A DNA stretch of 64,000 nt from Octopus vulgaris (taxonomy: Eukaryota). The stretch is taken from contig OX597830.1 in NCBI GenBank assembly GCA_951406725.2, forward strand, positions 78,678,001-78,742,000. The letters run 5' to 3'. Under the pieces are notes generated by a model that did not search any database, was not told the origin of the DNA, and was given only the letters and a program-made list of their open reading frames with translations. The position numbers and the translations under genes were made by a program. Positions 1 to 6,688 of this stretch are shown one piece after another (the stretch's first letter is position 1; every line of letters starts with the position of its first letter).

Positions 1-900
1 GATGTCATCCCTGATGAAACTGGGTATGTAAGTACATAATGGTTTCAAAACAATGTCAATAAAATTGCTTAGACGGTGTGTAGGGCATGCTGGACCAGCT
101 ATAATAGGTCTAAGTTTTAGGTCTTTTGGATGTAATAATTTTATGTACTCACTTTCTTGTTCTTTTACTGCCTGTTGAATGTTTTTTGATTTGTGTATTT
201 TTGGTAAGCCGTAGAAGTTGCTGGGTTTTGGTTCAAAATTGGTGATGTAGTCTTTTTCATTATCCGTAAGTGAGTTGTGGTGTGTTGAAATCAGGTTGTT
301 GATCTTTTTCATGATGTGGTGGTCTATATTTGCGGGTATTTCACAATAGAAGGTTGTATCCTTCAGTTGGTCTTCAACCAAATCCTTATAGTATTCGGTA
401 TCCATAATAACAATTGCACCACCTTTATCTGCTTGTTTAATTATTATTGTTTGATCGTTTTGTATACGTTTACATGCAGACATCTCTGATTTGCTAATGT
501 TTGGCCTAACATTGGTATTGCGTCTAAGGGGAAATTTAGACAGGATATCAATGTATTGGTCAAGGTAGTTATTTCTTCCTTTTGGTGGGGTGAAATTTGA
601 TTTATTCCTTACTAGGGATTCATCAATCTCATTACTTTTGTTAGCGAAGAATTCTACAAGTCGTAATTTTCGACAGAATTTTTGGATATCCTCCTTTAAT
701 TCTTGGTGGTTGGCTGTTGGTGTAGGTGTGAATTTCAGTCCTTTTGACAGAAGTTGGATTTCATCATTGTCAAGATCTCTTTTTGATAAATTAATTATTT
801 TAGGATCTATACGTTCAGTTGTTTGGGGTATGTTTCCTCTTGGATTTTTTCTTTCTCCGGTGTTTGTTGTCCTGACGTAAAAAAATGGATTTTTTTCTGG
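1..900 (-). CDS. PLE RT N-terminal part (minus copy, truncated by window edge)
   Basis: Mirror of 2836-3735: IINLS...LLSKGLKFTPTP, KQADKG, FYGLPKIHK, RPII. Confidence 0.85.
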
Positions 901-2051
901 TTATGATTTATATTCCTGTTGATGTTTGCTTGATGAATTTTGCGTTTTGGTTGTGGTACTTTACTTGGTTTCGTTATGTTTTCTGTCTTGTTTTTGGTAT
1001 TATGTATGCTACTTTTCAATTTCTTGTTAGCATTGTTTTTAACCACCTGGAGAAATGATCTGGGTTTACTTCTAGATCTAGATCGGTTTTTTGTCCAGTT
1101 TCTTGTGGGTAATCTCTGTTGAGGTCTTGAAAATGATCTCCTGTTATTTCTACTGCTAATGGTCTGTTCAAAACAATATCTATTTTGTTTGTGCTTTTTG
1201 TTCATGTTGTGTGCATTAGGGTGTTTGCATACAAAATGGGAAGAGTTCTTACCGTAGTTCGTCTTCGATTCGTGGTGAAACGGGTGTTCATGTTGCCACG
1301 TGTTCTGGTGTATGTTGCGTTGGTGAGGTTGTCCACTTTTAATGCTATTTCTCGGAGTTCTGGTGTCTTTACCGTAATTTGTAGCATATTTGTCGAGAAA
1401 TAATTGTTTCCGCTGCCAAAACTTTCTTGATCTGCTTTCTTCTTTTGAGATATCTCTGATCCATAGTTCTCGCATTTTTTCTGCTATATTGCCGGTCGTT
1501 AGTTTGGATATTTCATCTCTGATTTGATCATCGATAGCTTCGTATTTGGCTTTGTAGCGGGATTGTTTAGACAGGGTAATGGAGATGTCGGTCCTGAATT
1601 TTATCAAACTAAGGTCCCATCGAAGTTTAGTTTCTTCCTCTGGTTCTCCTGCAATTTCTTTAATTAGGTACTTCCGAGGAAGTATGGGTGCCGCTAAAGA
1701 TATCCATTTCGAATGTATTTCAGCATATTTTTCGCATTTATATGCCTTCCAGAAGTTTTGTTTTCTTATGTTAAGGAGTTTTTTCCATGTCTTCTGTATC
1801 TCTTCTCTTTTTCGGTGTGCCTCTTTTTCCAGATTTCTTTCGTTTATTTCTGACATCCAAGGAGGTTGTGGTAGGCTTTCTCTTGTAGATTTTATAATTG
1901 TTGGTATCATTTCAGCTAAATTCTTAATTTCAGAGTTTATGTGTTCATTTCCAAGTTTTCCGTCTGTAGACTGTTTTTCTATTTCCTTTAAAATAGAGGA
2001 TTGTGTGTCAATCATCGTGATGAGTGTTGATAATTTCGATGAAATTTCCAT
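807..2051 (-). CDS. PLE ORF1: 414-aa helical/coiled-coil-like N-half with Trp motifs, basic R/S/N-rich C-half
   Basis: Uninterrupted, non-repetitive 414-codon ORF directly upstream of the RT frame; RSRSRSKPRS tract. Frame stays open 9 codons upstream of the ATG to the pLTR junction, so the true start may be missing. Confidence 0.75.
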   Translation of the reverse strand: MEISSKLSTLITMIDTQSSILKEIEKQSTDGKLGNEHINSEIKNLAEMIPTIIKSTRESLPQPPWMSEINERNLEKEAHRKREEIQKTWKKLLNIRKQNFWKAYKCEKYAEIHSKWISLAAPILPRKYLIKEIAGEPEEETKLRWDLSLIKFRTDISITLSKQSRYKAKYEAIDDQIRDEISKLTTGNIAEKMRELWIRDISKEESRSRKFWQRKQLFLDKYATNYGKDTRTPRNSIKSGQPHQRNIHQNTWQHEHPFHHESKTNYGKNSSHFVCKHPNAHNMNKKHKQNRYCFEQTISSRNNRRSFSRPQQRLPTRNWTKNRSRSRSKPRSFLQVVKNNANKKLKSSIHNTKNKTENITKPSKVPQPKRKIHQANINRNINHNQKKIHFFTSGQQTPEKEKIQEETYPKQLNV

Positions 2052-2116
2052 TAGAATTCTTTCGGATATAGTAGAATGTTAAATGAAATAGTAGAATGTT
2101 AAATATTCATTCTGAT

Positions 2117-2161
2117 TGAACTAGTACTTTCATGCATTGAATTCTGCAATCATCGGGTTCA
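2117..2161 (-). ncRNA. Minimal type I hammerhead ribozyme (CCGAUGA core variant)
   Basis: Minus strand reads TGAAC-CCGATGA-TTGCA gaattcaa TGCAT-GAAA-GTAC-TA-GTTCA: stem I TGAAC/GTTCA, palindromic helix III AGTACT. Confidence 0.75.
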
Positions 2162-2204
2162 TGTAGTAGTGTTGACAGTCATGCTTCACAATTTGATCAA
2201 ATCA

Positions 2205-2929
2205 GATGATCAAATCAGAGATGAAATATCCAAACTAACGACCGGCAATATAGCAGAAAAAATGCGAGAACTATGGATCAGAGATATCTCAAAAGAAGAA
2301 AGCAGATCAAGAAAGTTTTGGCAGCGGAAACAATTATTTCTCGACAAATTGCTACAAATTACGGTAAAGACACCAGAACTCCGAGAAATAGCATTAAAAG
2401 TGGACAACCTCACCAACGCAACATACACCAGAACACGTGGCAACATGAACACCCGTTTCACCACGAATCGAAGACGAACTACGGTAAGAACTCTTCCCAT
2501 TTTGTATGCAAACACCCTAATGCACACAACATGAACAAAAAGCACAAACAAAATAGATATTGTTTTGAACAGACCATTAGCAGTAGAAATAACAGGAGAT
2601 CATTTTCAAGACCTCAACAGAGATTACCCACAAGAAACTGGACAAAAAACCGATCTAGATCTAGAAGTAAACCCAGATCATTTCTCCAGGTGGTTAAAAA
2701 CAATGCTAACAAGAAATTGAAAAGTAGCATACATAATACCAAAAACAAGACAGAAAACATAACGAAACCAAGTAAAGTACCACAACCAAAACGCAAAATT
2801 CATCAAGCAAACATCAACAGGAATATAAATCATAACCAGAAAAAAATCCATTTTTTTACGTCAGGACAACAAACACCGGAGAAAGAAAAAATCCAAGAGG
2901 AAACATACCCCAAACAACTGAACGTATAG
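2205..2929 (+). pseudogene. 5'-truncated, frameshifted ORF1 copy
   Basis: Matches minus-copy ORF1 from DDQIRDE onward, except a 1-nt deletion near 2350 (gacaaat-tgc vs gacaaatatgc). Confidence 0.85.
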
Positions 2930-5116
2930 ATCCTAAAATAATTAATTTATCAAAAAGAGATCTTGACAATGATGAAATCCAACTTCTGTCAAAAGGACTG
3001 AAATTCACACCTACACCAACAGCCAACCACCAAGAATTAAAGGAGGATATCCAAAAATTCTGTCGAAAATTACGACTTGTAGAATTCTTCGCTAACAAAA
3101 GTAATGAGATTGATGAATCCCTAGTAAGGAATAAATCAAATTTCACCCCACCAAAAGGAAGAAATAACTACCTTGACCAATACATTGATATCCTGTCTAA
3201 ATTTCCCCTTAGACGCAATACCAATGTTAGGCCAAACATTAGCAAATCAGAGATGTCTGCATGTAAACGTATACAAAACGATCAAACAATAATAATTAAA
3301 CAAGCAGATAAAGGTGGTGCAATTGTTATTATGGATACCGAATACTATAAGGATTTGGTTGAAGACCAACTGAAGGATACAACCTTCTATTGTGAAATAC
3401 CCGCAAATATAGACCACCACATCATGAAAAAGATCAACAACCTGATTTCAACACACCACAACTCACTTACGGATAATGAAAAAGACTACATCACCAATTT
3501 TGAACCAAAACCCAGCAACTTCTACGGCTTACCAAAAATACACAAATCAAAAAACATTCAACAGGCAGTAAAAGAACAAGAAAGTGAGTACATAAAATTA
3601 TTACATCCAAAAGACCTAAAACTTAGACCTATTATAGCTGGTCCAGCATGCCCTACACACCGTCTAAGCAATTTTATTGACATTGTTTTGAAACCATTAT
3701 GTACTTACATACCCAGTTTCATCAGGGATGACATCGACTTCCTGTCCCATCTTCCCAAAACAACAGAAACAAATTCAGTTTTACTAAGTTTTGATGTGGT
3801 AAGCCTCTACACCAATATTCCACACGATTTAGGAATAAAGGCGATTAAATACTGGTTAGAAAAACATAGAGAAGTGATTCCCAGCAGATTCACAGTGCCA
3901 TTTATATTAGACACAGTCAAACTTATTCTAGAAAATAACACATTCTTCTTCAATGGAAAGAATTACATCCAAATTAGAGGCACGGCGATGGGAACGAGGT
4001 TTGCTCCCGTTTACGCCAACTCTGTAATGGGATACTTAGAAGAACAACTCTACCAAGAGGTGGAGGTAAACTATGGCACTGGATTTAGAAAGTATATTGA
4101 AAAGGCATGGAAGAGATACCTAGACGACTGTTTCATAATCTGGACAGAATCTCTAAATACTCTGGAAGAGTTCAATATCCTCCTGAACAACCTACACCCA
4201 TCTCTCAAATTTACAAAGGAGATGAGTAGTACCAAATTACCATTCCTGGATATAATGGTAATTAAAAAAGACACCACCATCACCACAGATATATACTATA
4301 AACACACAGACACACATCAATACCTAAATTTTAAGTCGTGCCATCCACCACATACAAAACGTAACATCCCATACTGCCTAGCCAGAAGAATTTGTACTAT
4401 TGTAGAAGATGCAAATATCAGGAACAAACGCCTAATAGAACTAAGAGAATTTTTGCTCAAACAAAAATACCCATCTCTACTTATAGAAAATGGCATACAG
4501 CGGGCTATAAAAATACCTATACAACAACTTAGGACAACCCAAGGAAGAGGAAAACAAGAACAAGTCATACCATTCATAGTGACACACAACCCATGTCACC
4601 AGAATATCTTCAACATTGCCAAAGCAAACCTACCAATCATTGCCCAAAGTAATGAATTAAAAGACATAATCAAGGATCGAGCTATGGTACTTAGTAAAAG
4701 ACAGCCTAAAAACTTGAAAACATTACTAACAAAGGCAAAATTTGACCTCAGCAACAAAGACCAAACATTCACGGTATCTAAATGCAATGATAGCCGATGT
4801 GGCACATGCCAATTCATACATACCGGTCAATATATAAACACAAAAACCGGGAAAATATTCACAAACGCGAATATGAACTGCAAAAGCAGAAATTTAATTT
4901 ACTGCATCAAATGCCCAAATTGTGAAGAAATATATGTAGGTCAGACGGGAAACGCACTATTAGAACGCTCACGTGTACACCGGCAACAGATTAGAGACCC
5001 AGAATATATATATAATATTTCCATTCTACAAATTACACAGCCCAAGTGAAATCGAGAGGAAAATCAGAGAAAAGAATTTTATTGATAAATTCGAACCCAA
5101 GCTAAATAAGCAATAA
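2836..5116 (+). CDS. PLE reverse transcriptase + Cys-rich linker + GIY-YIG endonuclease (Neptune-like); C-terminus broken near 5010
   Basis: Frame open from 2836, before the first ATG at 3253. Motifs: INLS..KGLKFTPTP, DKG, FDVVSLYTNIP, GTAMGTRFAP, YLDD, YYKHTDTHQYL, CxxxRCxxC, LIY..YVGQT. Terminal IFPFYK...EKNFIDKFEPKLNKQ* lies in another frame (5015-5116). Confidence 0.95.
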
Positions 5117-5430
5117 TAATAATACTTAGAGGTATTACTTCCACTGCTACGACCATGACCACTAACAACAACAACAATACTAAAGGTGATCAAGAGGAAG
5201 ATAGCAGGAAAATTATCTTATTTAGGGTTAAAAGTTCTATTGCCACCACCATCACCACTAGCAACAATAATTAAGGTGCTGACAATGATGATGATGACAA
5301 TTGAAATATAAAAATATAAAAATCTCTGACAAAGGATATTTACAACATTTCTAAAAATAACCCAACAATTGCTGCTTCGGCCAGGGTCAAGATACAGGAC
5401 TCTTGACCTGTCCAACAAAGCGTGATGCCT

Positions 5431-5576
5431 AAACCAATCAGCTCAACCAACCAATCAGCTTAAGTAATTGAGTGATACTACACACTGATTGGTCAGAATA
5501 CAGTTTGCAAAACCTAGCACTCTGGAGCCTACCCAGCTGTATTTATAGCACAGAATCACTCATCTTGCTACAGTCA
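5431..5576 (+). promoter_or_regulatory. Putative Pol II promoter in pLTR
   Basis: CCAATCAG at 5434 and 5451, reverse CTGATTGG at 5485-5492, TATTTATA at 5540-5547, Inr-like CAGTC about 25 nt later. Confidence 0.6.
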
Positions 5577-5610
5577 AAAATTGTGAAGCATGACTGTCAA
5601 CACTACTACA

Positions 5611-5655
5611 TGAACCCGAAGATTGCAGAATTCAATGCATGAAAGTACTAGTTCA
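5611..5655 (+). ncRNA. Minimal type I hammerhead ribozyme (CCGAAGA core variant), predicted cut after 5650
   Basis: TGAAC-CCGAAGA-TTGCA gaattcaa TGCAT-GAAA-GTAC-TA-GTTCA. Differs from the 2117-2161 copy at the variable N7 position. Confidence 0.75.
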
Positions 5656-5817
5656 ATCAGAATGAATATTTAACATTCTACTATTTCATTTTATTTTATT
5701 CAATTATAATATATTATCTTATAATATATCATTATAAGATTGTAAATAAAACGTGAAAATCAGACAAGGTTGGAATTCTTTTTATTAATATATTCTTCTA
5801 TACACAATCACACACAC

Positions 5818-5866
<49 letters not shown>

Positions 5867-6296: not shown

Positions 6297-6688
6297 ATAT
6301 TCTTTTCTATTGTAGGCACATGGCCCTAAATTTTGAGGGTGAGGTCCAGTCGATTAGATCGACCCCAGTACGCAACTGGTACTTAATTTATCGACCCTGA
6401 AAGGATGAAAGGTACAAAACCGCGGCGGAATTTGAACTCAGAACAAAGACACAGGAAATACCTAACTACCCACAAGAAGCTAAACACAGAGGGGACAAAC
6501 AAGGACAGACAAACGGATTAAGTCGATTATATCGATCCCAGTGCGTAAATGGTACTTATTTAATCGACCCTGAAAGGATGAAAGGCAAAGTCGACCTCAA
6601 CGGAATTTGAACTCAGAACGCAGCAGCGGACGAAATACCACAAAGCATTTCGCTCGGCGTGCTAACGATTCTGCCAGCTCGCCGCCTT
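6297..6688 (-). mobile_element. SINE family A, one partial plus one full copy
   Basis: Head AAGGCGGCGAGCTGGCAGAA...GAGTTCAAATTCC and core CTTTCATCCTTTC..GGTCGATAAA..AGTACCAG recur more than 10 times in the window. Confidence 0.8.

Follow-up and report, generated by a model that had tools for sequence, protein, structure and literature searches.

The window, a 64,000-nucleotide stretch of the Octopus vulgaris contig OX597830.1 (positions 78,678,001 to 78,742,000), opens with two copies of a PLE arranged head to head (Table 1). The two copies are nearly perfect mirror images, with a single base of difference between positions 1-1532 and the reverse complement of 2205-3735, and the minus-strand copy extends about 2 kb past the left end of the window (contig L031). 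Both ends of the locus adjoin (TA)n. A 47-nt deletion at 5001/5002 truncates the endonuclease in both copies, with loss of the second His of the CCHH motif. The presence of the same deletion in both arms (window 1-5820 and L031) suggests that the locus stems from one insertion event from a defective RNA.

Table 1. Positions of the PLE features in the window, with the basis of assignment where given
Feature	Position	Strand	Basis
ORF2 (RT) of the minus-strand copy, -1 frame, runs off the window	1..900	-	
5'-clipped ORF1, equivalent to residues 17-430 of the 430 aa in the family	807..2051	-	
Slippery heptamer U_UUU_UUU in the ORF1 register (His-Phe-Phe); predicted -1 frameshift site	879..885	-	
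Basic, N/Q-rich, predicted disordered tail of ORF1	891..1355	-	Composition, pLDDT<50
Conserved all-helical core of ORF1, family residues 80-248	1356..1862	-	Alignment and AlphaFold2
N-terminal heptad/coiled-coil region of ORF1, family residues 17-68	1896..2051	-	Alignment, profile
Inverted piece of 3' pseudo-LTR between the head-to-head copies; hammerhead-like motif at 2117-2161	2068..2194	-	
Second, 5'-truncated ORF1 copy, 1-nt deletion near 2349	2205..2929	+	
ORF2 with RT, CX4CxxC linker and GIY-YIG; first ATG at residue 140	2836..5049	+	
Slippery heptamer of the plus-strand copy	2851..2857	+	
3' pseudo-LTR and tail, minimal-hammerhead-like motif at 5611-5655, ends in (TA)n	5578..5820	+	

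Intact copies of the same family (family A) are organised as 4,271-nt tandem units consisting of ORF1 and a 775-codon second frame with the RT, a CX4CxxC linker and a GIY-YIG domain, which PMC8557442 gives as marks of the Neptune/Nematis type. RVT_1 and GIY-YIG matches were obtained for all three intact ORF2s, above the cut-off in three cases for GIY-YIG and in one for RVT_1. The CX2-5CxxC linker finger and the CCHH motif can be read in ORF2 of families A and B and of contig L057, and pseudo-LTRs, tandem units and a head-to-head inverted pair are all present.

The two stems of the hammerhead-like motif fold as expected, but at a z of no more than -0.18, its core is CCGAAGA in 60 of 62 matches, compared with the CUGANGA consensus, and the pseudo-LTR has no Rfam hammerhead match. 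L054, an old copy, has the canonical CTGAAGA core, and so do contigs from two other organisms, as a variant at L043:6423. Beyond the element, positions 6340-6660 of the window hold two short repeat copies that may resemble an octopus SINE. The flank at L043:6590-7400 is without contig cover in all four runs, from which we infer nothing.

ORF1 and its genomic copies

On the minus strand, ORF1 runs for 414 codons from an ATG at 2051 and contains both tryptophan motifs quoted in an earlier note on this DNA, which had described the ORF as intact. We searched the octopus's own 2.8-Gb genome with it and scored 101 of 4731 candidates. All 101 match, the 27 top-scoring ones at 100% identity; hence, the ORF1 reading is not due to chance, and the ORF picked out in the earlier note is real. 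It is not intact. Of the 30 best copies, 27 have a further in-frame ATG, in a GCCAAC context, 16 codons before this start, and their protein is 430 aa long; the ORF1 of the window is thus a 5'-clipped copy (414 of 430 aa) that has lost these 16 codons.

The copies of this very young family are >99% identical. Between families, a pN of 0.35-0.45 was obtained against a saturated pS of 0.71-0.79, which supports constraint on ORF1 at the protein level; selection had been proposed in the earlier note as a check on this ORF. Since dS is saturated in five of the six between-family comparisons, dN/dS takes a value only for family A against the piece found in L057, for which it is 0.21 in a local alignment that favours conserved parts.

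Domains and predicted fold of the ORF1 protein

The N-terminal region has the heptad pattern of a coiled coil. The hydrophobic share at the a/d positions 16, 19, 23, 26, 30, 33, 37 and 40 ranges from 0.65 to 0.97 in a 130-row alignment. In a PDB sequence search, positions 13-69 of the ORF1 profile match a designed coiled coil (E=2e-4 with the later profile A4; no match with the earlier alignment A2). The core that follows has residues conserved at 90% or more (W105, R112, P141, K143, E152, D190, W213 and E221), and AlphaFold2 models it with a pLDDT of 96.8 and a pTM of 0.88, as helices only. The tail (residues 249-403 of 430) carries a net charge of +32, 23% N+Q and nine RS/SR dipeptides, and in 91 of the 95 long relatives a net positive charge is found over the final 150 residues. 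Heptad-like helices and a basic disordered tail had both been proposed from the letters alone, and both agree with these data; the RS dipeptides proposed along with them do occur, but they are not family-conserved in alignments A1 and A2. Within the tail, a short conserved motif, [YF]xxVV[KR], is found at residues 347-354 (about 1038-1061 of the window, minus strand), with Tyr or Phe in about 80% of the aligned rows.

Esterases are reported in Neptune-like PLEs of fish and molluscs in the excerpt of PMC5408684, and ORF1 gave no esterase match. The ORF1 of the window matches no Pfam family at E<=1, and no Pfam family recurs among its relatives, each being matched by at most 4 of 140 members (E<=10), in line with the earlier note, whose author recognised no domain. 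A conserved Cys/His pattern of the CCHC zinc-knuckle type is absent from alignments A2 and A3, as are such Pfam matches from 130 members. There is no RRM either, as outside the helices of the core the protein is coiled coil or predicted to be disordered.

Fold searches against PDB and BFVD returned no match at E<=0.001. The best structural matches are generic helical ones (Z 9.7, rmsd 8.7, 152 aligned; Z 9.4, rmsd 5.3, 145 aligned; Z 8.7, rmsd 6.3, 122 aligned), so a new fold is not demonstrated. The LAP2alpha domain PF11560, which derives from a DIRS ORF1, came up as a tentative lead in an atlas of protein clusters, with feature scores of 0.81-0.85 and 145-149 of 256 features in common; 11-25% of the proteins in the clusters concerned carry it. 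It is not among the listed Pfam matches of ORF1 relatives, and a genome search for it returned nothing, as did its controls.

The junction between ORF1 and the RT frame

The last ~90 nt of ORF1 overlap the RT frame, which lies in -1, and a run of seven T within the overlap is in the slippery register, so that the 0 frame contains a heptamer of the form X_XXY_YYZ, after which the -1 frame is open. The earlier note was right to place ORF1 in a PLE but missed both the overlap and the slippery run. The ORF2 frame opens four codons before the His codon of the heptamer, and its first Met comes 135 codons after the heptamer. In families A and B and in L057, this first Met of the -1 frame is located downstream of a conserved IINLS motif.

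Two overlapping frames are present in all 30 best copies, which were chosen by ORF1 similarity, as well as in family B and L057. The split state prevails in the family: among the 101 scored matches, 86 run to ORF1's own stop, six have fused frames of >1,100 aa and one has a frame of 633 aa. The six fused copies (L032, L035-L038 and L040) have single-base insertions in or beside A-runs. As the copies share no private variants, they do not form a fused subfamily and have independent origins. The junction is spanned with 0 gaps by contigs X15, X18 and X19, whose runs carry the labels of two other organisms.

Young copies of family A have the T7 run (L043:3606-3616), and six of six older ones read T6A (L054-L056 and L103-L105), three of which were found by a T6A pattern and three by a looser T6A pattern. 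The change between T6A and T7 keeps a valid slippery heptamer. According to the available part of PMC3458567, U6A alone gives 4-6% -1 frameshifting in reticulocyte lysate, and PMC4373837 gives the site of HIV-1 as U UUU UUA with GGG after it.

A crude scan for a downstream stimulatory structure found none above shuffles in families A, B, C and D. For the 60-120 nt downstream of the heptamer, z-scores range from +0.97 to -1.09 in A, from +1.09 to -0.52 in B and from -1.08 to -1.95 in L057, with -2.16 in one old A copy. In an equally crude pseudoknot scan, only L057 stands out, as a candidate (1 of 60 shuffles), and no pseudoknot was seen at the other five of the six junctions scanned.

Related families and linkage to RT

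ORF1 is linked to RT at the DNA level in five families (A, B, C, D and contig L057), in keeping with the earlier note, which had tied it to a PLE RT; the motifs of this RT are of Neptune type. Similarity in the core of ORF1 was the sole basis on which L057 was picked up, as 1 of 198 pattern matches. Identity is 47% over its piece of ORF1 and 55% over ORF2. L057 has T_TTT_TTA in register, its RT-EN frame is intact and overlaps ORF1 in -1, and proteins named Mytilus edulis match its ORF1. Family B (L089:1341-5182 and L093) is a second young, intact family of the same layout, with an ORF1 of 535 aa (31-32% identity) and an ORF2 of 775 aa (54.5%). Families C and D (L108-L131) are older and decayed, with ORF1 relatives upstream of RT and mostly T6A at their junctions. 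The pattern that led to families B, C and D included the heptamer (149 matches, compared with 70 for the reversed control); these families therefore support the layout and are not independent evidence for the heptamer. Collections of viral contigs and genome contigs yielded no related loci.

Probable footprint of the slippery site in ORF1 relatives

A profile built from six sequences matched 645 protein clusters at E<=0.001 and 325 at 1e-10; part of the weak tail of the longer list may be compositional. RT motifs are present in two of the best 150 relatives, P0073, which is a Mytilus gene model, and P0156, in which RT precedes ORF1. A weak search for longer fused ORF1-RT proteins found none. 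One relative, P0159, is filed under a Solemya velum gill symbiont assembly and is probably host DNA.

We collected 157 relatives and used the 95 of at least 330 aa, leaving out the 62 shorter ones. An F[LF] pair is found in the last 60 residues of 81 of the 95, compared with 14 of 95 for the preceding 60 residues and with a mean of 10 and a maximum of 18 in shuffles. The residue before this pair is K, Q, E, M or W in none of the 81 if the last match is taken and in one if the first is taken, against a background of 21.8% (p=2e-9, which is overstated since the relatives share ancestry). The codons of these five residues cannot end in U. Of 103 FL pairs elsewhere, 58 come directly after one of them. 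None of the 95 long relatives has FF[RS], the other register, and the residue after the FL pair has a G-starting codon in 59 of 79 cases (background 19.6%).

The 14 long relatives without F[LF] in the last 60 residues comprise three gene-model chimaeras, two proteins with FL further upstream, four with [YD]FR and five others. The four (P0098, P0104, P0106 and P0125) read [YD]FR where close kin read FL, and they possibly use a different slippery register or represent broken copies.

The FL pattern is the expected trace of a conserved U_UUU_UUA(G) and is hard to explain by protein function, which makes frameshifting likely. We consider it probable, on these sequence grounds, that the element is a two-ORF EN+ PLE whose RT-EN frame is reached by a -1 frameshift at a conserved U_UUU_UU(A/U).

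Alternative explanations

Three other routes to the RT frame were weighed. The RT might be translated separately, by re-initiation or from a non-AUG codon, or the polymerase might add a base by slipping on the T-run. Separate translation has a precedent in LINE-1 ORF2, which is translated after ORF1 ends, and the failure to find a downstream stimulator would suit either process, as a homopolymer would suit transcriptional slippage. However, neither explains why the U_UUU_UUA register and the following G are fixed. Moreover, the octopus ORF2 overlaps ORF1 rather than following it, and junction contigs show no indel at the site, which speaks only for the presence of an unaltered form. We regard these routes as unlikely.

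Alternatively, the T-run followed by AG might be a 3' splice site, and splicing would then place the RT frame behind a start codon further upstream. T6AG does look like an acceptor in B, C and L057, and most FL pairs have a G-starting codon after them; the consulted portion of PMC8557442 reports introns in PLEs, and Mytilus gene models (P0011, P0073, P0177 and P0180) join ORF1 to RT near the junction. Yet an acceptor need not keep one ORF1 register, and the relatives show 79 FL pairs against no FF[RS]. AG directly after the run is impossible in 20 of the 79, and family A reads T7-ACG. The gene models join the frames at different points, and uninterrupted stand-alone ORF1s occur in the same clusters (P0179 and P0181). 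Contigs X1, X2, X7 and X6, from runs that we guessed to be RNA, also bridge the junction unspliced; as contigs drop rare forms, they attest to the presence of an unspliced form only. Splicing thus appears quite improbable as the route to RT.

Finally, that the element is a single long ORF, the split having arisen in a non-autonomous master through mutation or an error at a homopolymer and the rare fused copies acting on this master in trans, would fit the fused frames in 6 of 101 copies, the single ORF described for canonical EN+ PLEs and the A-rich linkers that, in the part of PMC8557442 available, often frameshift by mutation in Naiads, but it is largely refuted and very improbable given the independent origins of the fused copies, the same -1 split and heptamer in families about 55% identical in RT, the scarcity of RT motifs among the best 150 relatives and the lack of fusions in the search, a weak one, of longer proteins.

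Comparison with known systems

Family A shares many features with the Neptune-clade EN+ PLEs described in the accessible sections of PMC8557442 (Craig et al. 2021, after Arkhipova 2006), namely a C-terminal GIY-YIG with CCHH, the CX2-5CxxC linker, pseudo-LTRs, tandem or inverted copies and (TA)n flanks. The RT motifs, compared by eye, also resemble the Neptune rows of Fig. S1 as seen in that source. In contrast, the Neptune EN+ PLEs have one ORF in those sections, whereas the octopus element has a separate ORF1 upstream in a -1 overlap. The consulted parts of PMC8557442 and PMC4209133 give canonical EN+ PLEs one ORF, and those of PMC6431247 distinguish PLEs with one ORF containing RT and EN from PLEs with two ORFs and no EN. 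Judged by motifs compared by eye, the octopus element is best described as a two-ORF variant with Neptune-type motifs, not a canonical one.

A frameshifted coiled-coil ORF1 has already been noted for some PLEs. Athena is probably the clade in which a frameshift with a pseudoknot sets ORF1 apart. The EN-minus PLEs Athena/Terminon and Coprina have a coiled-coil ORF1 upstream of RT, as in the octopus element, a likeness of layout only. Unlike them, the octopus element has a GIY-YIG domain, is found beside microsatellites on many contigs and shows no pseudoknot at five of the six junctions scanned; Athena and Coprina lack an endonuclease and bear telomeric repeats at their ends, whereas the octopus element is flanked by (TA)n. 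The legend of Fig. 1 in PMC8557442 and its preprint, as far as available, mentions, without naming a clade, that a frameshift with a pseudoknot may divide ORF1 off in PLEs.

Our literature search found no description of a frameshifted ORF1 in EN+ PLEs; the search covered papers, repeat databases being outside its scope, and a prior description is possible. The parts consulted of PMC3846280 and PMC7943196 contain nothing on such an ORF1, and those of the frameshifting review PMC5009743 do not contain the word 'Penelope'. There is an appreciable, if minor, chance that the layout has already been recorded somewhere.

Retroviral and LTR gag-pol systems such as that of HIV-1 (U_UUU_UUA) have the same heptamer, often followed by G, and a structural-type ORF upstream of the RT ORF. 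The octopus element differs from them by the absence of a zinc knuckle, a protease and an integrase, and our searches recovered neither a stable downstream stem-loop nor a recognisable capsid fold. The LINE-1 ORF1p has an N-terminal coiled coil, an RRM and a basic C-terminal region, and its ORFs are separated by a spacer. The octopus ORF1 likewise has an N-terminal coiled coil and a basic C-terminal region and is located upstream of an RT ORF. However, it has no RRM, and the ORFs overlap at a slippery site rather than being separated by a spacer. The analogy to LINE ORF1p or Gag drawn in the earlier note is thus confined to the layout, since beta-strands are missing from the core model and the protein lacks a zinc knuckle.

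Proposed mechanism and implications

Should the RT-EN frame be reached by -1 frameshifting as we propose, most ribosomes would stop and release the 430-aa ORF1 protein, and the few percent that slip at the heptamer would produce a fusion of ORF1 with RT and EN, about 1,175 aa long. The length of the accidentally fused copies (1,199), minus 24 codons before the ATG, equals that predicted for the fusion. We consider it very probable that -1 frameshifting yields mostly ORF1 and a small share of the fusion.

The earlier note took ORF1 for a putative multimerising RNA chaperone. From the layout, and by analogy with Gag, we infer an oligomeric RNA-packaging role for ORF1. The protein would oligomerise through its N-terminal coiled coil and bind the RNA of the element through the basic tail together with the conserved basic/aromatic helix. 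The rare fusion protein would enter the particle along with it, much as Gag-Pol enters that of Gag. A coat of ORF1 oligomers around the RNA, with the fusion assembled into it, seems reasonably plausible to us.

It is tempting to extend this scheme to a large, so far undescribed lineage of EN+ PLEs with a gag-pol strategy, that is, an RNA-packaging protein made in excess, a new helical domain and a structure-independent -1 fusion on U_UUU_UUA_G. We propose such a lineage tentatively, as a possibility somewhat short of probable. If it is real, a Gag-Pol-like stoichiometry would exist in the retroelement group closest to telomerase. A widespread EN+ group would then have a dedicated structural protein whose ratio to RT is set by ribosomal frameshifting.

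The lineage would also add many natural U6A frameshift sites seemingly devoid of a strong stimulator, and ORF1 defines a conserved domain missing from Pfam. For annotation, ORF callers miss the N-terminus of RT, the site is spanned by predicted introns in gene models, and the frameshift may be 'corrected' away when a consensus is built.
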